DNA from: Candidatus Falkowbacteria bacterium | GTDB lineage: Bacteria; Patescibacteriota; Patescibacteriia; Patescibacteriales; UBA12465 | Length of the DNA: 64,000 nucleotides | NCBI GenBank assembly: GCA_016432645.1 | Contig: CP066698.1 | Location: 20,245-84,244 of the forward strand | Direction: 5' to 3' | Shown here: piece after piece, positions 12,627 through 40,735 of the stretch | How the letters are laid out: every line of letters starts with the position of its first letter | Position numbering within the stretch: position 1 is the stretch's first letter | Notes under the pieces: generated by a model | Seen by the model: only the letters and a program-made list of their open reading frames with translations | Database searches by the model: none | Told to the model about the DNA's origin: nothing | Translations under genes and position numbers: made by a program

Positions 12627-14240
12627 ATGAAAAAAGATGACAGTATTGTTTTGTCTAAGCCTGAAATCAGGCCGATTTTGAATCCTCAGGATTCAGTGAA
12701 AGTCGTTTTAAACGGCGGCGTCTATCAGCTTGATGATGCAACTATTCCTTTTCGGATGGGTTTTAGTCAGAAGATTGCCGAAAAGAAACCAACCCATGTC
12801 ATGGTTATAGATATAACCGATGATGCCTTCTATCCAAACGGTAATCGTAAGAATTCCGACTCTGTATCTGAGAGAAGTTTATTCACTCTTGAGCCAATAA
12901 ATTATCTTCAGTTAAAAAAATCGGGCGAACATCACTTGATTTTCCTACTTTTTAACGAATTTCCAAAGTATCAGTATGAGCAATTATTATCAAAGAGAAT
13001 CGGCTACGATCATGCTATCGGTTTCTCGCAGATGGAGAATAATAAGGTTCTATTTTATCAAGTAGGATACTGTGAGGTTATAATTAACGTTCCGAAAGAA
13101 CTTTTTGCCAAGAAACCGGAAACCAAATGGTCAAAAGCCGTTTGGAATTGGGTTAATTCCTGGCACAAACTTACGCCGGTAGACGAATGTGAATACCGGA
13201 AACGCAAGATTTTTGCTTTTACCGGTAAGCCTATTATTTGGTTTTTGGGATTTTTGGCCCGTTTGGTGATCGTCTCCATAGTAACGCTTTTACAGTTTAT
13301 TGTGAGAGTTATTTGCCTTATTTTCGGCTATCAGCCGGTTAAATTTTTCCCGCATTTTAAAGAAGCGTGGATAGATTTTCTTTGTCGTTATTCGCAATCG
13401 TCCTTAAAGATGGATCGAATATTTGATGTTGCTGATTATTGGTTCGGAACAACGGTGTCCTTGAAAAACTTTGAAGTCGCTAATGAAGATGAAGAAGATT
13501 TTCATGAATACAAAGAGCATCACTTTTTCGGTTGGAAATTCCATTTGCCAATTACAATTTTTGGCTTTGTATTCTATGTTGGAGGAATATCTATGTATTT
13601 AGTTTTATTAGCTTCGATGTTCTCCTTTGATGGTGTTAGCTTTATCGGTAGTATTGGCGCTCTGGTTTTTACTCTCTTTATTTCTGTTTTAGCTTCTTCG
13701 CTTTTAGCCTTTAATACTTTGCCGACTTTATATGGCAATCAAAATTGGAAAAGAAAATGGGATAGGTTTGAGCTGGATTATAATAACCGGCGTCCTAAAA
13801 TTTTTAGAAATAGTATTATTGCGTCTGGCGGCTTAGCAGTACTAGTTTTTCTTATTTCTGCCTTGGCTCGTTTTATGATGAGTCGTCCGGCTCAAGAAGC
13901 TCCAAGCGAGCCTTCATCTACGGATTTGAGGTTTGTTCTCATCATTGCCGGTTTTATTCTTTTGTATTTTTTATTTTTGTTTATTGCCCGTCTGGTTTCA
14001 CCTTTTTTTAAGAAGGTAGGTAAAAAGGCAAAAACAAAAGTTACCGCTATTGTTAGTGAATCAAAAAAAACCAAAGAAATCAAAAGAGTTGAATGGTTAA
14101 AGAAAAGCTTTAATCTTGAAACAATGCCTGAAAAGGTTGATGTCGCCAAGGCTCCCGAGCCTTCGGTTTTTGTCCATCGTTTTACGATTAAGTTCTGGCA
14201 GGCTAAAGCTAAAGTTTGCCGCCCCTATGCTAAAAATTAA
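12627..14240 (+). CDS. Hypothetical polytopic membrane protein (orphan)
   Basis: 537 aa: a ~190-aa hydrophilic N-terminal domain, about 6 predicted TM helices, and a Lys-rich C-terminal tail. I recognise no motif. It has its own promoter and terminator. Confidence 0.55.
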   Translation: MKKDDSIVLSKPEIRPILNPQDSVKVVLNGGVYQLDDATIPFRMGFSQKIAEKKPTHVMVIDITDDAFYPNGNRKNSDSVSERSLFTLEPINYLQLKKSGEHHLIFLLFNEFPKYQYEQLLSKRIGYDHAIGFSQMENNKVLFYQVGYCEVIINVPKELFAKKPETKWSKAVWNWVNSWHKLTPVDECEYRKRKIFAFTGKPIIWFLGFLARLVIVSIVTLLQFIVRVICLIFGYQPVKFFPHFKEAWIDFLCRYSQSSLKMDRIFDVADYWFGTTVSLKNFEVANEDEEDFHEYKEHHFFGWKFHLPITIFGFVFYVGGISMYLVLLASMFSFDGVSFIGSIGALVFTLFISVLASSLLAFNTLPTLYGNQNWKRKWDRFELDYNNRRPKIFRNSIIASGGLAVLVFLISALARFMMSRPAQEAPSEPSSTDLRFVLIIAGFILLYFLFLFIARLVSPFFKKVGKKAKTKVTAIVSESKKTKEIKRVEWLKKSFNLETMPEKVDVAKAPEPSVFVHRFTIKFWQAKAKVCRPYAKN

Positions 14241-14260: not shown

Positions 14261-14293
14261 GCCGCCGGTCAATAGATCGGCGGTTTTTTTATT
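14261..14293 (+). terminator. Rho-independent terminator after the orphan membrane gene
   Basis: CCGCCG (14262-14267) pairs with CGGCGG (14278-14283) around a 10-nt loop, followed by TTTTTTTATT. Confidence 0.7.
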
Positions 14294-14416
14294 ATCCGAT
14301 TTAATGTCCAAAAACATCCATTTTGTCAATATTTATTTTATTAAATATCCGTATTATACTGGAATTGAATAGAAAGCCGTTTAGACGGCAATTTTTTGGT
14401 TATTAATAGAAAAATT

Positions 14417-17152
14417 ATGAGTATTTTTAGCAAGTTGTTTCCTGATGCCAATCAGAAAGTAATTGACAGCCTGAAACCAACAGTCGCCAAGATAAATAGT
14501 TTAGAAAAAGAGTATCAAGCTTTGAGCCCGGAAGATTTAAAATCTAAGACGGCTGATTTTAAAATGCGCTTAGAAAAGGGTTCAACTTTAGACGATGTTT
14601 TGCCGGAAGCTTTTGCAGCCGTTCGAGAAGCGTCGGTGAGAATTTTGGGGCAAAGACATTACGATGTTCAGCTTATTGGTGGCATCGTGCTTCATCGTGG
14701 CCAAATAGCGGAAATGCGTACCGGCGAAGGCAAAACTTTAGTCGCGACTTTGCCGCTTTATTTAAATGCCCTTGATGGCCAAGGGGTTCATTTAATTACT
14801 GTTAATGATTACTTAGCGCGCGTCGGCGCTGGTTGGATGGCGCCAGTTTATTATGCTCTAGGACTAACAACAAGTGTTATCGTTCATGATAACGCTTATG
14901 TTTATGATCCGGAATATATTGATGAGAGCCAATTTGATGAGCGCTTGCAGCATTTCCGTCGCGTACCGCGCCGCGATGCTTATTATTGCGACATAACTTA
15001 TGGAACCAATAACGAGTTTGGTTTTGATTATTTGCGCGACAATATGGTTTATACGCTGGCACAAACAGTACAAAGACCCCTTCATTATGCCATTGTTGAT
15101 GAAATTGATTCTATTTTAATTGATGAGGCGCGCACCCCTTTAATTATTTCCGCACCAGCTGAAGAGTCGGGCGAAAAATATGCCCGCTTTGCACAAATAG
15201 TTGAACATCTTGAAGAAAATGATGATTATAATGTTGATGAAAAAATGCGTGCCGCGACTTTAACTGAAGGCGGGATTGCAAAAGTAGAAAAAATCTTAGG
15301 TTTGGGAAATATTTATGTCGAAGGCGGCGTGAAGGAGGTTCATCACTTGGAGCAGGCCTTAAAGGCGCGCGTCTTATTCAAACGCGATAAAGATTATGTG
15401 GTTAAAGACGGCGAAATAGTTATCGTTGATGAATTCACCGGCCGCATGATGCCTGGCCGCCGTTATAGCGAGGGTTTACATCAAGCAATTGAAGCCAAGG
15501 AGGGTGTTAAGGTTCAAAAAGAATCTCAGACCATGGCCACGATTACTTTCCAAAACTTATTTAGAATGTATCACAAGTTGTCTGGTATGACCGGAACCGC
15601 GGCCACCGAAGCGGAAGAATTCCATAAAATTTATAATTTAGAAACGATTGTTATTCCAACTAACCGCCCGAATGTCCGAAAAGACATGAATGATTTAATT
15701 TATCGCACTGAAGAAGATAAGTTCAAGGCGGTTATCCGCGATGTTAAAGAACGCAGTGAAAAGGGCCAGCCGGTTTTAATTGGTACGATTTCCATTGAGA
15801 AGAACGAAATCCTAACGGAAATGATGGAACGTGAAGGACTAAGGCCGCAAATGTTAAATGCTAAAAACCATCAACGGGAAGCGGAAATTATCGCTCAGGC
15901 CGGACGCCGGGGAGCGATTACTCTGGCGACTAATATGGCCGGCCGCGGTGTTGATATTATTTTAGGAGGCAATCCTCCAGAGAAATCTGAGCAAGAGGCG
16001 GTTCAAGCCGCAGGAGGATTACATGTCATTGGCACGGAACGTCATGAATCGCGTCGTATTGATAACCAGTTGCGCGGCCGCGCCGGCCGCCAAGGCGATC
16101 CCGGTTCTTCACAGTTTTATGTTTCTACCGATGACGATTTGATGCGGATTTTCGGCGGCGACCGGATGAAGAATTTGATGAAGACTTTGAATGTCCCGGC
16201 CGATATGCCGATTGAAAATAAGATGATTTCCAAATCAATTGAAAGCGCCCAGAAAAAAGTTGAAGGCAATAATTTTGATATCCGCAAACATTTAGTTGAA
16301 TACGATGATGTTATTAATAAGCACCGGACTGCGATTTATCGTCGTCGCCGCGAAATAATTGATTTAAGTGAAGGAATTATTAAGTCGGAAGAAGGCGCGC
16401 CTAAAACTTTAGCGGAGATTGTTATTCCGATGGTTAAGGATGAAGTTAAAGGAGTTGTTGATTTTCATACTGCCGCTGAACAGGCTGCCGCTTGGAATCT
16501 CAAAGAAATTTTTGAAACCGTTAAAACTATTATGTCGGTTTCTGAAGAAGTTAAGGAAAAATTAAATTCTTTAGTTGCTGCCGGTGGGCGCCCAGAAATA
16601 ATCAGGGAAAATATAATTTCTTATTTAGAAACCGAAATTGAAAATCGCTATGCTCTTATGTCTGATAAGTTTTCAGCGGCGGGCGTTGATTTTAAAGAAA
16701 TAGAAAAGGGAATCCTTATTAGAACGATTGATAATTTTTGGGTTGAGCATTTGGAAACTGTTGACTACTTGCGCCGCGGCATCGGTTTGCGCGGCTATGG
16801 CCAGCGCGACCCGCTAGTGGAATATAAAAAGGAAGCTTATTTGATGTATCAAGAATTAAATAATTTAATTAATCGGGATGTTGCTTATTCAATTTTCAAG
16901 GCCGGAGAAGCTTTTGCGGCAGCCGCTGAACGAGCATTGGAAACTGAGGCGGTGAAAATGTTTGCTAATCAACCAGCCGCTAAATTGGAATTCACCGGTG
17001 CCCAAAAAGAAATGCATAAACAGGCGGAAGCGCGTAATACCGCCGACTTAGTTCATGAAAAGACTAAGGATGAAAGTGGCGAGAAGGTTGGCCGCAACGA
17101 TCCTTGTCCTTGCGGCAGCGGTTTGAAGTATAAAAAGTGTCATGGGAAATAA
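14417..17152 (+). CDS. secA: Preprotein translocase ATPase SecA
   Basis: The N-terminus MSIFSKLF...EMRTGEGKTLVATLPLYLNAL aligns with E. coli SecA. DEAD-like motor domains are present, and the C-terminal zinc-binding motif is CPCGSGLKYKKCHG. Start taken at ATG 14417 rather than the TTG at 14396 used by the ORF track. Confidence 0.9.
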   Translation: MSIFSKLFPDANQKVIDSLKPTVAKINSLEKEYQALSPEDLKSKTADFKMRLEKGSTLDDVLPEAFAAVREASVRILGQRHYDVQLIGGIVLHRGQIAEMRTGEGKTLVATLPLYLNALDGQGVHLITVNDYLARVGAGWMAPVYYALGLTTSVIVHDNAYVYDPEYIDESQFDERLQHFRRVPRRDAYYCDITYGTNNEFGFDYLRDNMVYTLAQTVQRPLHYAIVDEIDSILIDEARTPLIISAPAEESGEKYARFAQIVEHLEENDDYNVDEKMRAATLTEGGIAKVEKILGLGNIYVEGGVKEVHHLEQALKARVLFKRDKDYVVKDGEIVIVDEFTGRMMPGRRYSEGLHQAIEAKEGVKVQKESQTMATITFQNLFRMYHKLSGMTGTAATEAEEFHKIYNLETIVIPTNRPNVRKDMNDLIYRTEEDKFKAVIRDVKERSEKGQPVLIGTISIEKNEILTEMMEREGLRPQMLNAKNHQREAEIIAQAGRRGAITLATNMAGRGVDIILGGNPPEKSEQEAVQAAGGLHVIGTERHESRRIDNQLRGRAGRQGDPGSSQFYVSTDDDLMRIFGGDRMKNLMKTLNVPADMPIENKMISKSIESAQKKVEGNNFDIRKHLVEYDDVINKHRTAIYRRRREIIDLSEGIIKSEEGAPKTLAEIVIPMVKDEVKGVVDFHTAAEQAAAWNLKEIFETVKTIMSVSEEVKEKLNSLVAAGGRPEIIRENIISYLETEIENRYALMSDKFSAAGVDFKEIEKGILIRTIDNFWVEHLETVDYLRRGIGLRGYGQRDPLVEYKKEAYLMYQELNNLINRDVAYSIFKAGEAFAAAAERALETEAVKMFANQPAAKLEFTGAQKEMHKQAEARNTADLVHEKTKDESGEKVGRNDPCPCGSGLKYKKCHGK

Positions 17153-17157
17153 ATTTT

Positions 17158-17481
17158 ATGAAAACGCTAAAGTTTAGAAAAAATTTAGCAGAGGAAATAT
17201 TGGCCGGCCGGAAGACGGCAACTTGGCGTTTGTTTGATGATAAAGATTTGCAAATTGGCGATCAGGTTGAATTATTAGTTTGGGAAACTAAAGAAAAATT
17301 TGCTACCGCCGAGATTATCGCGCTTAAAGAAAAGAAATTACAAGACATTAAAGAGGAGGATTTTATTGGTCATGAAAAATTCGCGAGCCGCGAAGATATG
17401 CTTGAAAACTATCAATCTTTTTATGGCGATAAAGTAAATTGGGAGACGCCTATTAAAATGTTAGATTTTAAAATAATTTAG
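17158..17481 (+). CDS. ASCH-domain protein, YqfB-like (candidate modified-nucleoside amidohydrolase)
   Basis: 107 aa from ATG 17158. The motif EEILAGRKTATWRL matches the YqfB/ASCH signature (E. coli YqfB ...DDILAGRKTITIRD...). Confidence 0.65.
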   Translation: MKTLKFRKNLAEEILAGRKTATWRLFDDKDLQIGDQVELLVWETKEKFATAEIIALKEKKLQDIKEEDFIGHEKFASREDMLENYQSFYGDKVNWETPIKMLDFKII

Positions 17482-17486
17482 AAAAT

Positions 17487-18227
17487 ATGAGCTCTGAAAA
17501 GATGCCAAATTTTTCAGCTAGTCCGGAGAAAAAGAAAGAACTCGGTGCTTTGCAATATATTAATCTGCAAATGAAAGAAGCAATTTCTGAGGAAGACTAT
17601 GAACAAGCAGTCTGTCTGCGGGATATCCAAGAAAAATTAAGCAAAAATAATCAGCCGCTACCTTGTATTCGTCAGGAAGATATTCTGGAAGATGAAAAGG
17701 AAAAATCAGAGTCAGAGGACGAGGAGGATAGTCCGGCTATGAGAGCTTGGCAGGGAATTGAATCAAAGCAAATGGCTGATTTGTATGTTGGCAAAGATAT
17801 TGTTAAGTCATCTTCTTTTTCTCATTATTTAAAAGGCAATGATAAATATTTGGGCGGGTTTGCCAGGGAACTTTGGGATGATGTCAGACATTACAAGCAT
17901 CTTGAAGATTTAGACGAGAGAACTGATTATTTATCTTCTCTTCACAATTTATACAGCGAAGCGCAAGAGCTAAGAAATATTGCGAAAGCAAAGATTGATA
18001 ATATTTTTCAAATGTATAATAAGCGCGAACCGATTTTAAAAGCTGACACTGAAAGTATTCCGAAATATTTTCCGGGTCTGCCAAAAACGCAGGATATATT
18101 GCGTAAGAAAATGGAAGCGATGCCGGATTTTATCAGTGAACCGCTCGCTTATTGGAATGGTGTGTATGATAATTCTAGTCAAATCGCCGATGATTTAGAG
18201 CTGGCGATTAAAGAAATGACCGAATAA
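17487..18227 (+). CDS. Uncharacterised protein with N-terminal UVR-type motif (paralog A)
   Basis: 246 aa. The motif LQYINLQMKEAISEEDYEQAVCLRDIQEKL matches the UvrB/UvrC UVR domain pattern, then an acidic linker. The RAWQGIESKQ and C-terminal YWNGVYDNSSQIADDLELAIKE motifs are shared with the 18850 paralog. Confidence 0.6.
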   Translation: MSSEKMPNFSASPEKKKELGALQYINLQMKEAISEEDYEQAVCLRDIQEKLSKNNQPLPCIRQEDILEDEKEKSESEDEEDSPAMRAWQGIESKQMADLYVGKDIVKSSSFSHYLKGNDKYLGGFARELWDDVRHYKHLEDLDERTDYLSSLHNLYSEAQELRNIAKAKIDNIFQMYNKREPILKADTESIPKYFPGLPKTQDILRKKMEAMPDFISEPLAYWNGVYDNSSQIADDLELAIKEMTE

Positions 18228-18231
18228 ATTT

Positions 18232-18819
18232 ATGAATAACGATATTAATTTTTTATTTGAATTAGGCACAATGCGCAATGTGCCGCGCGCTTGGCGCCAG
18301 CATTTTGGTTTAGATTGCGCGAGCGTCCATGAGCACACTTATCGCGTTGTTTGGCTGGCTTTAATGTTAGCCCGGATGGAAAAGAATGTTGATGAAAATA
18401 AAATTATTAAAATGGCTCTAGTCCATGATATTTCTGAAATTAGAACTTCTGATTTAGGTTATATTCAAAAAGTTTATACTAAAGCGAACGATGACCAGGC
18501 GGCTCATGATTCTTTGGCGGAGACTATTTTTGCTGATTTTTATAGTGAGGTGTTTAAAGAATATGAAGAACGAAATTCTTTGGAAGCCAAAATTGTCAAA
18601 GATGCTGATAATTTGGATATTGATTTAGAACTGAAAGAGTTAGAAGAACGTGGTTCAAAACTACCAGCCAAATTACAAGATTTTCGCAAATTAGTCAGAA
18701 ATGAAAAATTATATACCGCATCCGCCAAAAAAGTTTGGGATGAAATCCAGGCAACCGACGTTTCCGATTGGCATCTGAAGGCTAATAAATGGGTGAAGAT
18801 GCCGGAAACCGGGAGATAA
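18232..18819 (+). CDS. HD-domain phosphohydrolase, YfbR-like 5'-deoxynucleotidase
   Basis: 195 aa with the H...HD...E metal-binding pattern (SVHEHTYRV...LVHDISEIRTSDL...DADNLD), which aligns with E. coli YfbR. Confidence 0.75.
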   Translation: MNNDINFLFELGTMRNVPRAWRQHFGLDCASVHEHTYRVVWLALMLARMEKNVDENKIIKMALVHDISEIRTSDLGYIQKVYTKANDDQAAHDSLAETIFADFYSEVFKEYEERNSLEAKIVKDADNLDIDLELKELEERGSKLPAKLQDFRKLVRNEKLYTASAKKVWDEIQATDVSDWHLKANKWVKMPETGR

Positions 18820-18849
18820 TTTTTATTAATTCGTATTAATTTTAAATGT

Positions 18850-19578
18850 ATGGGTTTGGAAAAAATGGAAATGACTCCGCGTACCTCCGAACTTAAAAAA
18901 GAAAATCCGGATTTAAAATTGGTTTCGGCTCAGTTGGATGAAGCGATAAAACAGGAGGACTTTGAACAAGCAGCGATCTTGCGCGATTATTTGCAGGAAC
19001 ACGCCAGTCAAGGTGATGCCTATGAATTAAATAAAAAAGATTTTATTGAGCCAACCAGAGGCGGCGTTTATATTTTTCTTAAAAATAATCCTCGCCATCG
19101 TGCTTGGAAAGGGATAGAAGAAAAGCAAGAGCGGTATTTTTATGAAGACAAAGAAAAGGTTGATAAGAGCCGTTTTGCCGGAGATTTAACTTTTTTGCCT
19201 CGGACTTATGGAGTCCTAGAAGAAGATGATTGGCAAAAAATCAGGAATTTGAAGGAAACTCGAGGTGGAGATAAAGTAGACATGATGATTAGTTTGCAAG
19301 ATAAGATTGCCGAAGCAAAAAGTTTAGTAGATTTAGCAGAGGAAAAATTTCAGCGTCTCTGGCAACCATATTGCAAGAAACATGGGCTAGCCGGGCAGGA
19401 ATTTGAAGAAATGCACAGTCTCTATAATGAAGCCGCCGGCTGGACGGAAGAAAAAAATAGTTTTCTCAACCAAATTCCTAGAAGTTTAGGCGACCCTTTA
19501 CGCTACTGGCAGAATGTTTATGATAATTCGCGGTTTATCAGAGACGAACTAGAAAAGGCCTTGGCGGAATTGCAATAG
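18850..19578 (+). CDS. Uncharacterised protein with N-terminal UVR-type motif (paralog B)
   Basis: 242 aa. The UVR-like motif is LVSAQLDEAIKQEDFEQAAILRDYLQE. It shares RAWKGIEEKQ and the C-terminal YWQNVYDNSRFIRDELEKALAEL with paralog A. Confidence 0.6.
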   Translation: MGLEKMEMTPRTSELKKENPDLKLVSAQLDEAIKQEDFEQAAILRDYLQEHASQGDAYELNKKDFIEPTRGGVYIFLKNNPRHRAWKGIEEKQERYFYEDKEKVDKSRFAGDLTFLPRTYGVLEEDDWQKIRNLKETRGGDKVDMMISLQDKIAEAKSLVDLAEEKFQRLWQPYCKKHGLAGQEFEEMHSLYNEAAGWTEEKNSFLNQIPRSLGDPLRYWQNVYDNSRFIRDELEKALAELQ

Positions 19579-19606: not shown

Positions 19607-19996
19607 ATGAAATCAGTCGTGATGTGTGGCAGCTCCAGTTTTGCTTCCGAGATGAGAGACTTTTCTGAGCGTCTTAAAAATTTAGGCGCGGTTGTTTATG
19701 AGCCTCATCTTTATCGCGCTTCTGGCGGCGTTTGGAGTGAGATTAAAGAATCTGATCGTAAATATGTGGCGCTTGGTTTGACTCATGATCATTTTTATAA
19801 AATGCGCATGGCTGACGTAATTTATGTTTATAATAAGGATGGTTATGCGGGGGTAAGCGTTAATATGGAAATTGGTTATGCTGTCGCGCTTAATAAGCCG
19901 ATTTATGTCCAAGATGAAAATGATGCCGAACCTTGCCGTAAAGCGTTATTTAGCGGCGTTGTTAAAACCCCAGAAGAATTGATAAAATTTTTATAA
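19607..19996 (+). CDS. Nucleoside 2-deoxyribosyltransferase / DNPH1 (Rcl)-fold protein
   Basis: 129 aa. The N-terminus VVMCGSSSFASEMRDFSERLKNLGAVVYEPH, together with ADVIYVYNKDGYAGVSVNMEIGYAVALNKPIYV, matches the PF05014 pattern (compare human DNPH1 YFCGSIRGG... and ADVVVAEVTQPSLGVGYELGRAVAFNKRIL). Confidence 0.55.
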   Translation: MKSVVMCGSSSFASEMRDFSERLKNLGAVVYEPHLYRASGGVWSEIKESDRKYVALGLTHDHFYKMRMADVIYVYNKDGYAGVSVNMEIGYAVALNKPIYVQDENDAEPCRKALFSGVVKTPEELIKFL

Positions 19997-20000
19997 TTTA

Positions 20001-20474
20001 ATGAAGAAATTAACACTAGTTATAATTTATCAAAATGGCCAAGTGTTGCTCGGAATGAAAAAGCGCGGTTTTGGAGCGGGCCGTTGGAATGGTTTTGGCG
20101 GCAAAGTTGAAGAAGGCGAGGCTATTGAAGAAGCGGCGGCGCGTGAGTTATTTGAAGAGGCAAATATTGTAGCTGGTGATTTGCTGGAAGTGGGAGTTTT
20201 AAACTTTAACTTTGCCGACGCGACGCCTGATTTAGAGGTCTATGTTTTCCGAGTTGATAAATTTTCCGGTGAGCCGCAAGAAACCGAAGAAATGCGGCCG
20301 CAATGGTTTAAGATTAATGATATTCCTTATAAGAAGATGTGGGCGGATGATATTTTCTGGTTACCCCTATTAATTAACGGGGAGAAATTCAAGGGTGAGT
20401 TTGTTTTTGATAAGCCTTCAACCGCCGAATACGCCGCCAAAATAATTAGCCAAAAATTAGAAATTAGCAAATAA
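20001..20474 (+). CDS. Nudix hydrolase, MTH1/NUDT1-like oxidised-purine nucleoside triphosphatase
   Basis: 157 aa with the Nudix box GGKVEEGEAIEEAAARELFEEANI. The segment LGMKKRGFGAGRWNGFGGKV is essentially identical to the corresponding segment of human MTH1, as are MRPQWF and DIPYKKMWADDIFWLPLL. Confidence 0.75.
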   Translation: MKKLTLVIIYQNGQVLLGMKKRGFGAGRWNGFGGKVEEGEAIEEAAARELFEEANIVAGDLLEVGVLNFNFADATPDLEVYVFRVDKFSGEPQETEEMRPQWFKINDIPYKKMWADDIFWLPLLINGEKFKGEFVFDKPSTAEYAAKIISQKLEISK

Positions 20475-20489
20475 ATTTTTTAATATTAT

Positions 20490-23400
20490 ATGAATAAGCC
20501 AGCAGAAAAAGAAAAAACAAAAAGCCCCTATGTCTCAATGGAAGAAGAGGCTTTAGCTTTTTGGAATAATTCTAAAATTTTTGAAAAATCTCTCGCGCAA
20601 GAGGCGCCTAAAGGCGATTATGTTTTTTATGACGGCCCCCCATTTGCTACCGGCACGCCGCATTACGGGCATTTAGTTGCTAGTATAATGAAAGATGTCG
20701 TACCACGTTATTTTACGATGAATGGTTACCATGTAGAGCGAAAATGGGGCTGGGATTGCCACGGTTTGCCGATTGAAAATATTGTGGAAAAAGAATTAGG
20801 AACTAAACAGAAAAAAGATATTGAAGAACTCGGTGTTGGTAAGTTTAATGATATTTGTCGTTCTAAAGTGATGACTTATGCCGGCGAATGGGAGAAAGTT
20901 ATTAATCGTTTGGGCCGCTGGGTAGATATGAAAAATTCGTACCGCACCATGGATTTGAATTTTATGGAATCGGTTTGGTGGGTTTTTAAGGAATTATGGG
21001 ATAAGGATTTGATTTATCAAGATTATCGTTCCATGCATATTTGTCCGCGCTGTGAAACGACTTTGTCGCAATCGGAAGTAACCGAAGGTTATCGCGATAT
21101 TAAGGATTTAAGCGCGATTGCGAAGTTTGAATTAGTTGATGAGCCGGGAACTTTCATTTTAGCCTGGACAACAACGCCTTGGACTTTAATCGGTAATGTC
21201 GCTTTGGCCGTTGGCCAGGAGATTGAATACGTGAAAATTAAAATGGATGACGTTCAATATATTGTCGCTAAAGAACGGTTGGCAACGATAATTTTTCCAG
21301 GGTATTCAATCGTTAATGTTAGCAGTGAAAAAAATGAGGTTTTGGCTAGAAAAGGATCTAATGATAGTGATGAAACATATGATATTAAAATAATCAACGG
21401 CAATGAGCTTGTCGGCAAATCCTATAAACCCCTATTCAGCTATTACGCGAGTGATACTAAATTAGCCAATCATGATAATGGCTGGAAAATTTACGCTGGT
21501 GATTTTGTAACCACGACTGATGGCACCGGTGTCGTTCATATTGCACCCGCTTTCGGCGAGGACGATATGAATTTAGGCAAAGCCAATAATTTACCTTTTG
21601 TTCAACACGTTGGTATGGATGGCATTTTTAAACCGGAAGTCACTGATTTTCCCGGGATGCATGTTAAGCCGATTGGCGACCACACTACAACCGATATAGA
21701 GATTATTAAATATTTAGCCAAGAATGGATTGTTATTTCATAAAGAAAAATATGAACATAGTTATCCGCACTGCTGGCGATGCGATACGCCACTGATTAAT
21801 TACGCGACCTCTTCTTGGTTTGTGAGTGTTAGCAAAATTAAAGATGGCTTGCTAGAGAGCGCTAAAAAAATCAATTGGTTCCCGGAACATATTAAAGAAG
21901 GCCGCTTCGGTAATTGGTTGGAGGGCGCGCGTGATTGGTCTATTTCTCGTCAGCGTTTTTGGGCCAGTGCTATTCCAATCTGGGAATGCGCCTGCGGCGA
22001 GCGCCAGGTTATCGGCAGTGTCGCGGAATTAGAAAAATTAAGCGGCCAGAAAATAGATGATATTCATAAAGATAAAGTTGACGGTTTAACTTTTGCTTGC
22101 GCTAAATGCGGCGGCGCCATGAAGCGCATCCCGGACGTTTTGGATTGTTGGTTTGAGTCCGGCTCTATGCCTTATGCTCAGTATCATTATCCCTTTGAAA
22201 ATAAAGAAAAGGTTGAGCAGAATTTTCCGGCGAAATTCATCGCTGAAGGCGTTGATCAAACTCGTGCTTGGTTCTATTATCTCCATGTCATTTCCGGCGG
22301 CATCAAGAAAAGCCACGCTTTTGAAAATGTGATTGCTAACGGCATTGTGTTAGCTGAAGATGGCAAAAAGATGTCTAAGCGCTTGCAAAATTATCCCGAT
22401 CCTTATTTGGTGATGGAAAAATATGGCGCCGATGCTCTGCGCGCCCAACTTTTATCTTCACCGGTCATGGCCGCCGAAAATTTAAATTTTTCAGAAAAGG
22501 GAACCGAGGAGTCTTTACGCAAGAACATCATGCTGCTCTTTAATGTTTATAAGTTCTATGAGCTCTATGCGCAAGAAAATCAGGAAATTATTTTAGATTT
22601 AAGCTATGGCGATTTAAAGAACGAAGTTTTAAATAGCGATAACGTTTTAGATAAATGGCTGATGTTAAAGTTTAATGCGCTACTAGCGGAAGTCGGAGCA
22701 GGAATGGAAGCTTATAACTTGCCGAAAGCAGTGCGGCCAATTACCGAGTTTATTGATGAGTTTTCTACTTGGTATTTAAGAAGAAGCCGTGATCGGTTTA
22801 AGTCGGATGATGAGACTGATAAGAAAAATGCGCTACTGACCACTAAATTGATAATGTCGGAATTAGCTAAAGTAATGGCGCCATTTATGCCGTTTATGGC
22901 GGAGAATTTATGGCAGAAATTAAATGGGCTAGATTTTCAAAATGGCCAAGCATCAGTTCATTTAGAATCTTGGCCGGTCTTTCTTAAAATAGAAAAAGAT
23001 GAAACTCTGGAAAAGATGGCCATGGTCAGAAGGATTGTGGAAATTGGTTTAGCCAAACGCGACGTCGCGGGTATTAAGATTAGACAGATGCTGAACCAAG
23101 CGATTGTGAAAGGCAGCATCGATTTAGAGGAGGCTTATCAGGAATTAATTAAAGATGAACTTAATATTAAGAGTTTGGATTTGGCGGCTGGTTTTGAAAA
23201 CCTGGAAGTAGAATTAGATATAGAGATTACCCCAGAACTTAGGTTGGAAGGAATTAAGCGCGAACTTATTCGCTTTATTAATTTATCGCGCAAGGATGCC
23301 GGTCTTAGTTTAGGAGATAAGGTTGATGTGGAAATTATTTCAGAGTCGGCGGAAATTTCTGAAGCCGTTAAAAAATTAGGCGCTGAGATTGCCAAAGAAA

Positions 23401-23510
23401 CTTTAAGCGAATCATTAGTTTTAGCTGCCGAAACCTCAACCTCTGATTTTAGTAAAGAAATAAAGATTGACGGGCAGCCGGTGGTTATTAATTTGAAAAT
23501 AATTAAATAA
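20490..23510 (+). CDS. ileS: Isoleucyl-tRNA synthetase, type 2 (eukaryote-like)
   Basis: 1006 aa. PFATGTPHYGHLVASIMKDVVPRYFTMNGYHVERKWGWDCHGLPIE matches the cytosolic-type IleRS HIGH region. Also carries KMSKR and Zn Cys motifs (CPRCET, CWRCDTP). Confidence 0.9.
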   Translation: MNKPAEKEKTKSPYVSMEEEALAFWNNSKIFEKSLAQEAPKGDYVFYDGPPFATGTPHYGHLVASIMKDVVPRYFTMNGYHVERKWGWDCHGLPIENIVEKELGTKQKKDIEELGVGKFNDICRSKVMTYAGEWEKVINRLGRWVDMKNSYRTMDLNFMESVWWVFKELWDKDLIYQDYRSMHICPRCETTLSQSEVTEGYRDIKDLSAIAKFELVDEPGTFILAWTTTPWTLIGNVALAVGQEIEYVKIKMDDVQYIVAKERLATIIFPGYSIVNVSSEKNEVLARKGSNDSDETYDIKIINGNELVGKSYKPLFSYYASDTKLANHDNGWKIYAGDFVTTTDGTGVVHIAPAFGEDDMNLGKANNLPFVQHVGMDGIFKPEVTDFPGMHVKPIGDHTTTDIEIIKYLAKNGLLFHKEKYEHSYPHCWRCDTPLINYATSSWFVSVSKIKDGLLESAKKINWFPEHIKEGRFGNWLEGARDWSISRQRFWASAIPIWECACGERQVIGSVAELEKLSGQKIDDIHKDKVDGLTFACAKCGGAMKRIPDVLDCWFESGSMPYAQYHYPFENKEKVEQNFPAKFIAEGVDQTRAWFYYLHVISGGIKKSHAFENVIANGIVLAEDGKKMSKRLQNYPDPYLVMEKYGADALRAQLLSSPVMAAENLNFSEKGTEESLRKNIMLLFNVYKFYELYAQENQEIILDLSYGDLKNEVLNSDNVLDKWLMLKFNALLAEVGAGMEAYNLPKAVRPITEFIDEFSTWYLRRSRDRFKSDDETDKKNALLTTKLIMSELAKVMAPFMPFMAENLWQKLNGLDFQNGQASVHLESWPVFLKIEKDETLEKMAMVRRIVEIGLAKRDVAGIKIRQMLNQAIVKGSIDLEEAYQELIKDELNIKSLDLAAGFENLEVELDIEITPELRLEGIKRELIRFINLSRKDAGLSLGDKVDVEIISESAEISEAVKKLGAEIAKETLSESLVLAAETSTSDFSKEIKIDGQPVVINLKIIK

Positions 23511-38654: not shown

Positions 38655-38710
38655 ATCGATTGTTTTACAATTTGTAAAAACCCCCGTTTGTGGTATTATA
38701 TAGATGTTAT

Positions 38711-40735
38711 ATGAATAAAATAATAACATCTTTTTTTATACTTCTAAGCGCGCTCGCCGTGCCGGTTTATGCTGGTTTTACGCCTAATGACTCTTTTTTT
38801 GGCAATCAGTGGTATCTCTCTAAAATTAAAGCCGATAGCGCTTGGGAAAAAGTTTCGGAAAGCCCAGAAACAGTAATTGCTGTTATTGACTCCGGCGTTC
38901 AAATAAATCATCCCGATTTGCGCGATAATATTTGGACAAATAATCGCGAAATTTCTGGTGACGGAGTTGATAATGATCACAACGGTTTCATTGATGACGT
39001 TAATGGTTGGGATTTTTCAACTAATATTCCCGACCCCTCGCCTAAATTTGCCGACGGTTGGACAGAGGCTGGGATTTCCCATGGAACCATGGTAGCGGGA
39101 ATTATTGCTGCTCGCGGCAATAATAATCAAGGCGTAGCCGGAGTAACTTGGCGCGCTAAAATTATGCCGCTTAAGGCTTTAAACGATAAGGGCGAAGGGC
39201 GAGTCAGTGACGTTATCCGGGCTATCGACTATGCTCTTAATAACGGCGCCGATATTATTAACCTTAGTTTTGTCAGTTTTAATTATAGCGCCGGTTTGCA
39301 AGAAGCTATTACCCGCGCTCATAATGCCGGAGTGATGATTGTGGCGGCTGCCGGAAATGAACAGGCTGCCGGTGAAGGCTATAATATTGATAAGACTAAA
39401 ATTTACCCTGCTTGTTATGATGGCAGCTTGGTCGGTGAAAATATGGTTATCGGCGTGGCCGCTACTGACGCGCTTGATCAAAAAACTAAATTTTCCAGCT
39501 ATGGTTTTAGCTGTGTAGATATTGCGGCTCCTGGAATTAGTTTTTTTAACACCGTAACCGGCGATAGCCGTGCCGGAGCGATTAAATATTACGATGGCTA
39601 CTGGTCGGGAACTTCCATGGCCGCGCCTTTGGTTTCGGCGACGCTCGCTTTAATCCAACAAGCTAATCCAGAGTTAAGTCGCCGCGAAACCGTTAACATT
39701 TTATTTGCTTCGACGGATAATATCAGCCGCTTGAATCCTGACTATCTCGGCCAGCTCGGTAACGGCCGCTTAAACGTCAATCGTGCCGTTGAGATGGCTA
39801 AAGAAAAATTATATAATCATCTCGGCCGTTTATTAATTTTACCAGCTACCCAAAAGAATAAACTGAAAGTCGCAGCTGCTAACGGCGATTTGGTTTATTA
39901 TTTGCCTGATGGCGCTATTAAAACCGGAGCGCCTTTTGTAACCGGTGATGTTAATGATAACGGGGTTGATGAAATAGTGGTCGGTGCCGCTGCTGGCGAT
40001 GAGCCCAAAATTAAAATTTTAAGCAGTCAAGGAAAATTATTAGGAGAATTTTGGGCGGCCGATAAAAAATTCCGCGGCGGCTTAAACGTCGCTTTAATAG
40101 ATTTGGATAATAGCGGCGCTAAAAAAATAGTTGTCGCTCCCGCTTCCGGCGGCAGCCCGCAAATTAAAATTTTTGATTATCAAGGAAATTTAAAAGTGCA
40201 ATTTTTTGCGGCCCCGAGTAACTGGCGCGGCGGATTCAATATTTCCGCTGGCGATATTGACGGCAAGGGTTTGCCGGAGATTGTAGTCGGCTTTGGAAAA
40301 GGCAGCGAACCGCAAGTCAGAATTTTTAATGCCGAAGGGAAATTAATCGGTAGCTTTTTAGCCTATGAAAAAAAATTTCGTGGCGGCGTTAATGTAGCGG
40401 TCGCTAATTTAGATGGCCGCAAAGATCATAATAAGGCAGAAATTATAATTACTCCCGGAGCCGGGCGGGAACCCCAAGTTAAAGTCTATAACCATCGAGC
40501 CCAGTTGATTAATAAGTTCTTGGCTTATGGTAAAAGTTGGCAAGGCGGCGTTAACTTGTCTGCCGGAGATATTAATAGCGACGGTATTTCTGAAATAATT
40601 CTCAGTACTTATAGCGGCGCTGCTCCTCATGTCCGAGTCTTCAGCGGCAATGGACTAATTTTAGAATCATTCTACGCCTATGATCAGGACTTTAACGGCG
40701 GCGTTAATGCTGGTATAATAAGAATAAATAACTAA
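38711..40735 (+). CDS. Secreted subtilisin-like serine protease (S8) with C-terminal FG-GAP/VCBS-like repeats
   Basis: Signal peptide MNKIITSFFILLSALAVPVYA. Catalytic triad motifs VIDSGVQINHPDL (Asp), HGTMVAGIIAA (His) and GTSMAAPLVSATLALI (Ser). The C-terminal ~280 aa carry five ~55-aa repeats. Confidence 0.8.
   Translation: MNKIITSFFILLSALAVPVYAGFTPNDSFFGNQWYLSKIKADSAWEKVSESPETVIAVIDSGVQINHPDLRDNIWTNNREISGDGVDNDHNGFIDDVNGWDFSTNIPDPSPKFADGWTEAGISHGTMVAGIIAARGNNNQGVAGVTWRAKIMPLKALNDKGEGRVSDVIRAIDYALNNGADIINLSFVSFNYSAGLQEAITRAHNAGVMIVAAAGNEQAAGEGYNIDKTKIYPACYDGSLVGENMVIGVAATDALDQKTKFSSYGFSCVDIAAPGISFFNTVTGDSRAGAIKYYDGYWSGTSMAAPLVSATLALIQQANPELSRRETVNILFASTDNISRLNPDYLGQLGNGRLNVNRAVEMAKEKLYNHLGRLLILPATQKNKLKVAAANGDLVYYLPDGAIKTGAPFVTGDVNDNGVDEIVVGAAAGDEPKIKILSSQGKLLGEFWAADKKFRGGLNVALIDLDNSGAKKIVVAPASGGSPQIKIFDYQGNLKVQFFAAPSNWRGGFNISAGDIDGKGLPEIVVGFGKGSEPQVRIFNAEGKLIGSFLAYEKKFRGGVNVAVANLDGRKDHNKAEIIITPGAGREPQVKVYNHRAQLINKFLAYGKSWQGGVNLSAGDINSDGISEIILSTYSGAAPHVRVFSGNGLILESFYAYDQDFNGGVNAGIIRINN
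39885..40732 (+). repeat. Five tandem ~165-nt coding repeats (FG-GAP-like beta-propeller blades) inside the S8 protease gene
   Basis: Repeat units: GDVNDNGVDEIVVGAAAGDEPKIKIL... / IDLDNSGAKKIVVAPASGGSPQIKIF... / GDIDGKGLPEIVVGFGKGSEPQVRIF... / ANLDGRKDHNKAEIIITPGAGREPQVKVY... / GDINSDGISEIILSTYSGAAPHVRVF... Each ends in F(L/W)AxxxxFRGG(V/L)N. Confidence 0.7.

Follow-up and report, generated by a model that had tools for sequence, protein, structure and literature searches.

Here we describe two tandem genes, A and B, in a 64-kb window (the whole stretch of DNA analysed) of a Candidatus Falkowbacteria bacterium, whose sequences identify them as true paralogs belonging to a small protein family that is restricted to Patescibacteria. 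Each protein combines an N-terminal UVR motif with a predicted all-helical C-terminal domain, which neither sequence nor fold searches could assign to a family, in agreement with the sequence-only reading. In the reading that we favour, with a probability of about 35%, the proteins are non-catalytic UVR dimerisers, present here as an A:B heterodimer, whose conserved patch would bind a partner or ligand of a nucleotide-sanitation module. Patescibacteria lack de novo nucleotide synthesis and must scavenge their nucleotides, and to our knowledge the control and cleaning of this salvaged pool are poorly understood.

Both open reading frames of the sequence-only reading were recovered on the plus strand, within a tightly packed co-directional run that extends from secA to ileS (Table 1). 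The ASCH-domain gene overlaps the end of secA with its first 16 nt, and its last nucleotide lies 5 nt before A. Judging from its profile matches, the HD gene encodes a probable 5'-(deoxy)nucleotidase of the YfbR/HD_3 type. The Nudix gene product also gave MutT-type NCBIfam matches, every one under its curated cut-off. No terminator-like site was found in the paralog region, from the end of secA to the start of ileS, and the best such site (14261-14284) is located just upstream of secA. An RNA element or repeat was rejected as an explanation because Rfam yielded no match in the window and the remnants of the duplication consist of coding sequence only.

Table 1. Features of the secA-to-ileS run, numbered from the first nucleotide of the window.
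Feature	Position	Strand	Evidence or remarks
secA	14396-17152	+	Co-directional run
ASCH-domain gene, directly 5' of A	17137-17481	+	Pfam ASCH E=5.1e-11; ORF
Paralog A, 246 aa	17487-18227	+	ORF; BLASTP vs B; Pfam UVR 19.4 bits; AF2
Predicted UVR helix-loop-helix hairpin of A, residues ~22-53, LQYINLQMKEAISEEDYEQAVCLRDIQEKL	17550-17645	+	Pfam UVR residues 28-52; AF2
HD gene, 195 aa, between A and B	18232-18819	+	Pfam HD_3 E=2.6e-22; YfbR-like E=2.3e-11
Paralog B, 242 aa	18850-19578	+	ORF; Pfam UVR 26.4 bits; AF2; column conservation
Predicted UVR helix-loop-helix hairpin of B, residues 20-57, ...LVSAQLDEAIKQEDFEQAAILRDYLQEH...	18907-19020	+	Pfam UVR residues 25-49; AF2; PDB profile matches
NDT-like gene, 129 aa	19607-19996	+	Pfam Nuc_deoxyrib_tr E=1.7e-5, 25.4 bits, below GA 28.8
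MutT-like Nudix hydrolase gene, 157 aa	20001-20474	+	Pfam NUDIX E=4.6e-18
ileS	20490-23510	+	Same tightly packed co-directional run

The two proteins align end to end (BLASTP, 30% identity, E=1e-27), and all strings quoted in support of their paralogy were found, namely the UVR-like segment, RAW(Q/K)GIE(S/E)KQ and PLxYW..VYDNS...D(D/E)LE.A. The identity is unevenly distributed (residues 1-19, 42%; 20-57, the UVR segment, 34%; 58-80, 9%; 81-110, 47%; 111-205, 19%; 206-242, 43%), which bears out the proposed divergence of the centre. Two remnants of the duplication are detectable at the DNA level (17572-17610 vs 18935-18973, 74%; 18150-18175 vs 19504-19529, 77%), both at the two best-conserved motifs. 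Protein A begins with a disordered tail that contains an MxxEK motif, followed by the UVR hairpin, an acidic disordered linker (residues ~60-82) and the all-helical C-terminal domain. The AF2 models of A (pLDDT 78.6, pTM 0.74) and B (pLDDT 81.6, pTM 0.76) have an identical all-alpha architecture with a confident hairpin. B is the ancestral-type copy and carries the family motifs P81-x2-RAW-x-G, G100-K-x2-V-x2-S, K166-F-x2-IWQPY174 and P216-L-x-YWQ-x-VYDNSR228. A is a derived copy, as judged from its long branch in a neighbour-joining tree; its WQPY motif is degenerate (FQMY), DNSS replaces DNSR, and the conserved patch has suffered the changes W171F, P173M/T and R228S.

The N-terminal motif is a genuine UVR motif, as had been proposed. 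B (26.4 bits) exceeds the gathering score of Pfam UVR (PF02151; 21.5 bits) and A (19.4 bits) falls just below it; 30 of the 32 family members match at E<=0.1 (best, 3.1e-8), and the A orthologs P0010 and P0011 have precomputed PF02151 matches. Against the PDB, the family profile matched only the UVR hairpins of McsA, UvrB, ClpC and ClpE, and the partial matches to a 1.84-billion library that were scanned (10 of about 24) all carry a bona fide Pfam UVR motif (38-73 bits). AF2 predicts an antiparallel helix-loop-helix hairpin in both proteins, with helices at residues 22-34 and 38-53 in A (pLDDT >90) and at 20-34 and 38-57 in B (pLDDT 93-95). The loop Phe and the Ala three residues later that have been highlighted in the UVR dimer interface (PMC13273187) correspond to position 38, which is aromatic in 31 of 32 members, and to Ala41, the sole invariant column (32/32), so that by alignment the interface residues are intact in the family. 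Compositional noise was thus ruled out as the source of the match by the Pfam score of B, the profile matches and the conservation of the interface. The pTM values of about 0.75 suggest that the hairpin may pack against the C-terminal bundle, in which case it could form an integral part of the structure instead of being free to act as a dimerisation handle. P0033 has an apparent second UVR motif; the other family members have one each.

UVR is the only Pfam or NCBIfam domain in A and B. Residues ~78-242 gave no significant sequence or fold match in Pfam, NCBIfam, PHROGs, PADLOC or the PDB, and neither a catalytic-type motif nor a match to an enzyme family was found in either protein. A degenerate second UVR repeat was rejected for this domain (hhalign of N- vs C-terminal sub-profiles, probability <=6%, 13 columns), and so was the idea of a protein from a defence system or a phage (neither PADLOC nor PHROGs gave a match, and tblastn found nothing in phages, plasmids or IMG/VR). 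A literature search returned no match for the family. The most conserved positions outside the UVR motif are aromatic and polar and occur in contiguous runs, including an unbroken run of ten conserved residues (Y219-R228); as a helix could not bury all of them, a functional surface is implied.

The family is very small, with about 20 full-length representatives among 1.84 billion. A scan of GTDB genomes with the UVR motif as pattern detected at least two true family loci, a metagenome scan with the C-terminal motif detected four loci in one sample, and a protein search with the 32-sequence profile added a single new member (P0063). The order A-HD-B is present in the window and in all five independent related loci that were read fully (L001, L002/L006/L031, L007, L035 and L037), with the ortholog of the NDT-like gene located between A and HD in L001 and L035; in L040/L041 and L038, A and HD are visible before the contig ends. 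The distant members (L033, L034 and L005) have one B-like copy and no HD gene nearby, which places the origin of A-HD-B in a duplication within one closely related Falkowbacteria clade and indicates that the family predates the HD gene at this locus. Wherever SecA could be compared, all genomes with A-HD-B proved to have SecA proteins of 92-93% identity, and the arrangement therefore represents roughly one evolutionary event. The family is consistently associated with a wider cluster of nucleotide-hydrolysing enzymes that runs from secA to ileS: in every locus read, the adjoining genes encode Nudix, MazG, NDT-like, ASCH, Ham1 or GMP kinase proteins, and downstream of the B-type gene a Nudix gene is the neighbour that recurs most consistently.

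No gene of the cluster evolves faster than A and B, yet both are under purifying selection. Their dN/dS values (0.05-0.23; A alone, 0.07-0.14), against 0.01-0.04 for HD, identify them as real genes. Their identity is 53-80% in comparisons that give 88-94% for SecA, IleRS and HD, and that of B is 35-44% in comparisons that give 71-84% for SecA. The HD proteins of related loci are 91-94% identical to the window copy and 93-98% identical among themselves; extreme conservation of HD beside rapid change in A and B gives no hint of a tightly co-evolving complex with HD. Adaptors typically evolve fast, and the rates of A and B fit an adaptor better than a core enzyme.

According to our preferred reading, A and B would be cytoplasmic, non-catalytic, all-helical members of a small and fast-evolving family, which self-associate by head-to-head dimerisation of their UVR hairpins as in UvrB/UvrC, the UVR proteins of Clp systems and DISC1. 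The ancestral single-copy protein would have been a homodimer, and the tandem duplication in the Falkowbacteria clade would have produced a conserved B and a degenerate A, which most likely pair. Given that UVR serves as a dimerisation module, the heterodimer already suggested by the sequence-only reading is plausible, and degeneration of the patch in A would be expected of the secondary subunit of a heterodimer. The motifs RAW-x-G, IWQPY and YWQ-x-VYDNSR would form a conserved aromatic/polar patch by meeting at one pole of the C-terminal bundle, a placement deduced only from helix order and topology. This patch may bind a protein partner or ligand belonging to the presumably co-transcribed module for nucleotide-pool sanitation and salvage (Nudix, NDT-like, HD, MazG, ASCH), with A and B acting as regulatory or scaffolding subunits and not as enzymes. 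We infer the dimerisation, the A:B pairing and any link to the neighbouring enzymes from these observations.

Three other explanations were weighed against it. The genomes behind the loci form a narrow, related set, so that the conserved context may reflect inherited synteny and not functional coupling, and secA accompanies the family as constantly as the nucleotide enzymes do: it lies upstream in all loci read that extend far enough and is directly adjacent to the family gene in L005, L034, L037 and L040. The protein could then act elsewhere through UVR contacts: it might regulate a Clp/AAA+ chaperone or serve it as an adaptor, in the manner of McsA or plant ClpF, or else interact with UvrB/UvrC or be a SecA-linked factor. 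Rapid evolution of the adaptor kind, the closest sequence matches of the UVR segment (McsA, the M-domains of ClpC/ClpE, and UvrB) and the repeated ties of UVR proteins to Clp systems (PMC8889267; reference 25 cited in PMC13273187) speak for this possibility. We nevertheless regard it as rather unlikely, given that the McsA/Clp/UvrB matches are limited to the motif of about 35 residues (E 0.007 to 0.1), that A and B have no McsA zinc fingers and no Clp, Uvr or Sec domain, and that the scan of 10 large ORFs of the window revealed neither a clp nor a uvr gene. The sequence-only reading had suggested scaffolding or regulation of the bracketed enzyme, but this did not generalise, as distant members are single-copy without HD and A-HD-B is about one event. 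A specific role of A and B in regulating or scaffolding the HD 5'-nucleotidase, for example in an A:B:HD complex that gates dephosphorylation of dNMPs, is in our view improbable. The triad is held in the five related loci and the window while other cluster genes come and go, and the A-type copy and HD always co-occur, both being missing from single-copy loci; against this stand the very close relationship of the triad genomes, the greater age of the family at the locus, and the drift of A and B to 53-80% identity where HD remains at 91-98%, which argues against an intimate co-evolving interface.

We also judge it unlikely that the C-terminal domain is an all-alpha domain of unrecognised type for small-molecule binding or hydrolysis, acting directly on (modified) nucleotides or nucleosides, with UVR serving for dimerisation only; in that case the conserved aromatic and polar cluster (W86, W171, Y174, Y219, W220, Y224, D225, N226, S227 and R228) would be a base-stacking pocket. 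Such an activity would suit a neighbourhood made up entirely of nucleotide hydrolases and transferases (Nudix, MazG, HD, NDT-like, Ham1, GMP kinase, ASCH and a weak HIT match) and the aromatic and polar character of the conserved runs, and it has a precedent in all-alpha nucleotide hydrolases, an existing class that includes MazG and dimeric dUTPase. However, a MazG-like all-alpha pyrophosphatase was rejected, as alignment of the family profile with the neighbouring MazG proteins gave a probability of 0.1% (hhalign) and there was no Pfam MazG match. D225 is the only nearly invariant acidic residue outside the UVR motif, and the metal-binding pattern ExxE...ExxD of MazG, or anything like it, is absent from the family columns. 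Moreover, A and B outpace the adjacent enzymes two- to fivefold in their rate of evolution, and several residues of the putative pocket are lost in A. Decidedly doubtful is the most far-reaching version, in which the C-terminal domain would be an undescribed Patescibacteria-specific module, either a regulatory subunit that joins Nudix, NDT-like and HD proteins in one complex or a new nucleotide-binding all-alpha fold, with A and B forming an asymmetric heterodimer around the HD nucleotidase. If true, this module would help auxotrophic, scavenging bacteria to clean or channel salvaged nucleotides.

On our preferred reading, the family is a lineage-specific candidate organiser or regulator that stays embedded in the secA-to-ileS cluster for nucleotide house-cleaning, and in its C-terminal domain the UVR module for self-association gains a new partner. 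The family has very few members, spans a narrow range of taxa and contradicts no current expectation; the evidence on it is comparative, and its value is that of a defined, testable orphan family.

The UVR motif of UvrB and UvrC (PF02151) folds as a helix-loop-helix hairpin about 35 residues long, of signature A-x3-(E/D)-(F/Y)-E-x-A-A-x-L-R-D, which is shared by the A/B family together with the loop aromatic residue and the Ala of the head-to-head dimer interface. However, the motif is C-terminal or internal in UvrB/UvrC and N-terminal in A and B, which have no helicase, GIY-YIG or endonuclease domain; the remainder, an orphan helical domain, is unrelated; the genes lie among nucleotide-pool enzymes and not among repair genes. 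Membership in UvrB/UvrC was rejected because only the motif matches (UvrC equivalog, 12.3 bits vs cut-off 1021). A and B can also be likened to McsA, the M-domain of ClpC/ClpE and plant ClpF, small non-enzymatic UVR proteins in which the motif mediates protein-protein contacts. McsA, the activator of the protein-arginine kinase McsB, is the best sequence match in the PDB (8wtb_B, E=0.0067), over its UVR segment. Membership in McsA was likewise rejected (NCBIfam, 12.9-15.6 bits vs cut-off 210, UVR segment only); neither A (two Cys) nor B (one Cys) has the N-terminal zinc-finger CxxC pairs of McsA, and mcsB and clpC are absent from the gene neighbourhood. The eukaryotic DISC1 core has no detectable homology to A and B outside the UVR motif, and it carries two such motifs per chain and forms tetramers, whereas A/B proteins have a single motif (P0033 with its apparent second aside). 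It is nevertheless a helical scaffold in which UVR hairpins drive oligomerisation and separate surfaces bind clients (PMC13273187), the same logic that we propose for A and B.

The UVR-motif proteins A and B, which the sequence-only reading took for tandem paralogs, align over their full length with 30% identity (BLASTP, E=1e-27), and all motif strings quoted in that reading were found. Its claim of a diverged central part also holds, with 19% identity over residues 111-205 against 47% (81-110) and 43% (206-242); values are 42% for residues 1-19, 34% for 20-57 (UVR) and 9% for 58-80. At the UVR motif and the C-terminal motif the two genes still resemble each other in DNA sequence, offset by some 1360 nt, the trace that an ancient tandem duplication should leave. 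Selection on both is purifying (dN/dS 0.07-0.14 in A, 0.05-0.23 in B, ratios that are approximate, with dS near saturation in many pairs). The deposited annotation of this Candidatus Falkowbacteria MAG lists B as 'UvrB/UvrC motif-containing protein' and A as 'hypothetical protein'.

Coordinates of the features (window positions unless a related locus is named)
Feature	Position	Strand	Remarks
Membrane protein	12627-14240		537 aa, predicted multi-pass
Terminator-like site	14261-14284		top site of region, immediately 5' of secA
secA	14396-17152	+	ORF
ASCH-domain gene	17137-17481	+	Pfam domain call; 5' end overlaps secA 3' end
Paralog A	17487-18227	+	246 aa
Disordered tail of A	17487-17545	+	
HD_3/YfbR-like gene (HD)	18232-18819	+	Pfam domain call
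Paralog B	18850-19578	+	242 aa
Disordered tail of B	18850-18906	+	
NDT-like gene	19607-19996	+	domain call; after B
MutT-like Nudix gene	20001-20474	+	domain call
ileS	20490-23510	+	domain call
Subtilase (Peptidase_S8) + FG-GAP repeat fusion	38690-40735		681 aa
NDT-like gene	L001 5446-5838		between A and HD
NDT-like gene	L035 4283-4660		between A and HD
Nudix hydrolase	L033 5902-6423		173 aa; C-terminal SEC-C zinc-binding motif (Pfam E=8.1e-6)
A-like member P0063	L040 237-992		

The N-terminal motif proposed in that reading is a real UVR, judging from scores, predicted structure and interface residues. In Pfam, B scores 26.4 bits (gathering score 21.5) and A 19.4 bits, and 30 of the 32 family members match (best E=3.1e-8). 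Searched against all PDB sequences, the family profile retrieved UVR hairpins only (McsA, UvrB, ClpC, ClpE); partial hits among 1.84 billion representatives covered only its N-terminal part, and all ten that were scanned were bona fide UVR proteins (38-73 bits). A helix-loop-helix was confidently predicted in both paralogs (AF2). The UVR pocket contains a loop Phe that is highly conserved and, three positions further on, an Ala (PMC13273187). In this family 31/32 members have an aromatic residue at the first of these positions and 32/32 have Ala at the second, the sole invariant column of the alignment. Because these tests were positive, compositional coiled-coil noise was rejected as the source of the match. 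P0033, a 328-aa protein from the representative library, alone among family members matched over two stretches, because its N-terminal extension apparently holds another UVR-like segment in degenerate form.

The AF2 models (pLDDT 81.6 and pTM 0.76 for B, 78.6 and 0.74 for A) share one architecture. A disordered tail (16-18 residues) precedes the UVR hairpin, and a variable linker, which in A is acidic and disordered, leads on to a helical domain made up mainly of three long helices (~81-97, ~140-177 and ~211-241 in B). Comparison with curated families gave no match for the C-terminal domain, which the sequence-only reading likewise could not place. Its conserved motifs are P81-xx-RAW-x-G88, G100-K-xx-V-xx-S107, K166-F-xx-IWQPY174 and P216-L-x-YWQ-x-VYDNSR228 (numbering of B). 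Judging by the succession of helices, all of these but the second should lie at one pole of the bundle, and part of this conserved patch is probably a functional surface, because ten consecutive conserved helix residues cannot all be buried. The tail (pLDDT below 50) carries a family-conserved motif, M-x-[FLS]-E-K ... E-x-x-K, which may be a short linear interaction motif or degron.

The family is very small, with about 20 full-length members (218-328 aa) among the 1.84 billion representatives, 21 clusters in a collection of 5.8 billion sequences, and at least two loci in GTDB species representatives, both from Patescibacteria or Falkowbacteria MAGs; tblastn found no relatives in phages, plasmids or viral contigs. 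Since divergence is fast, this rarity may partly reflect sequences that have passed beyond detection. In a neighbour-joining tree (no support values), A-type proteins form a single long-branch clade inside the family, beside the B-type clade, and all members outside the A-type clade are B-like. P0063 is named 'chromatin remodeling complex protein RSC6' in one source, a label to which domain matches gave no support.

The genes from secA to ileS all lie on the + strand and are closely packed (4-30 nt between genes). Co-transcription is likely, since no terminator-like site was found on that strand from the end of secA to the start of ileS. Further upstream are ribonucleotide reductase genes, followed before secA by a predicted membrane protein without a Pfam family. 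Across the whole 64-kb window GC skew is positive, the + strand holds nearly all genes, and neither tRNA genes nor Rfam matches at gathering thresholds were found; the subtilase fusion is probably a secreted or surface protease.

Gene order in the window and in related loci
Locus	Genes
Window	secA, ASCH, A, HD, B, NDT, Nudix, ileS
L001	secA, DUF2000, MazG, MazG, Nudix, ASCH, A, NDT, HD, B, Nudix, ileS
L002	secA, MazG, MazG, Nudix, ASCH, A, HD, B, NDT, Nudix, ileS
L035	secA, MazG, ASCH, A, NDT, HD, B, Nudix, GMP kinase
L037	secA, A, HD, B, Nudix, ileS
L040	secA end, A-like, HD, contig end
L033	secA, Nudix(+SEC-C), MazG, Nudix, Nudix, single copy, NDT, Nudix, ileS
L034	secA, single copy, Nudix, Ham1
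L005	secA, single copy, 80-aa ORF, ileS
L039	most divergent family member, weak HIT-like gene

In every locus reaching far enough secA lies upstream, usually with ileS downstream, and the family consistently sits amid genes for nucleotide-hydrolysing enzymes of salvage or 'house-cleaning'. The NDT (nucleoside 2-deoxyribosyltransferase)-like gene changes place between genomes that are very similar in other respects, which indicates that the cluster is rearranged rapidly at the local scale. The Nudix/SEC-C fusion in L033 is unusual; its gene directly follows the secA end with slight overlap, and the secA product also ends with SEC-C.

Within the cluster, A and B evolve fastest; rapid change around a few strictly conserved patches is a pattern more typical of adaptors and regulators than of core enzymes. 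In the A-HD-B loci (L001, L002, L035, L037) amino-acid identity to the window proteins is 92-93% for SecA, 88-92% for IleRS, 94% for HD, 84-93% for NDT, 82-84% for Nudix, 82-87% for ASCH, 65-80% for A and 53-79% for B. The single-copy loci gave SecA 84%, IleRS 73%, NDT 74%, Nudix 65% and B 35% (L033), SecA 71%, Nudix 34% and B 39% (L034), and SecA 76% and B 44% (L005). HD and its orthologs (those four loci and L040) share 91-98% identity, with dN/dS of 0.01-0.04 at near-saturated synonymous sites (dS about 1 or more), a conservation exceeding that of SecA and IleRS of the same genomes.

The best-supported reading, still tentative (probability about 0.35), is that the protein is helical and non-catalytic, would self-associate through UVR and would use its conserved patch to bind a ligand or partner belonging to the probably co-transcribed nucleotide-sanitation module. 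The ancestral single-copy protein would have been a UVR homodimer and, after duplication, A and B would form a heterodimer, with A as the degenerate subunit that has lost W171, P173 and R228 of the patch. Less probable is that the context is inherited synteny only and that the protein uses its UVR to contact the machinery of Clp, Uvr or SecA.

An unrecognised all-alpha protein that itself binds or hydrolyses nucleotides is unlikely. We are equally doubtful that the pair specifically regulates or scaffolds the HD nucleotidase, which the sequence-only reading proposed. A and HD occur together in one clade only, and comparison of the gene orders gives one B-like gene without HD as the ancestral state; the genomes with the A-HD-B arrangement are so closely related that it amounts to about a single event in evolution. 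Some other function takes the remaining probability.

This is a clean and testable finding, taxonomically narrow and with nothing surprising to a specialist. By its score above threshold, its predicted hairpin and its interface residues, the N-terminal motif belongs to the UVR family; the protein lacks the domains that define UvrB, UvrC and McsA and is therefore none of these. What appears to be new, from the sequences, is an orphan effector domain tethered to a known UVR module.
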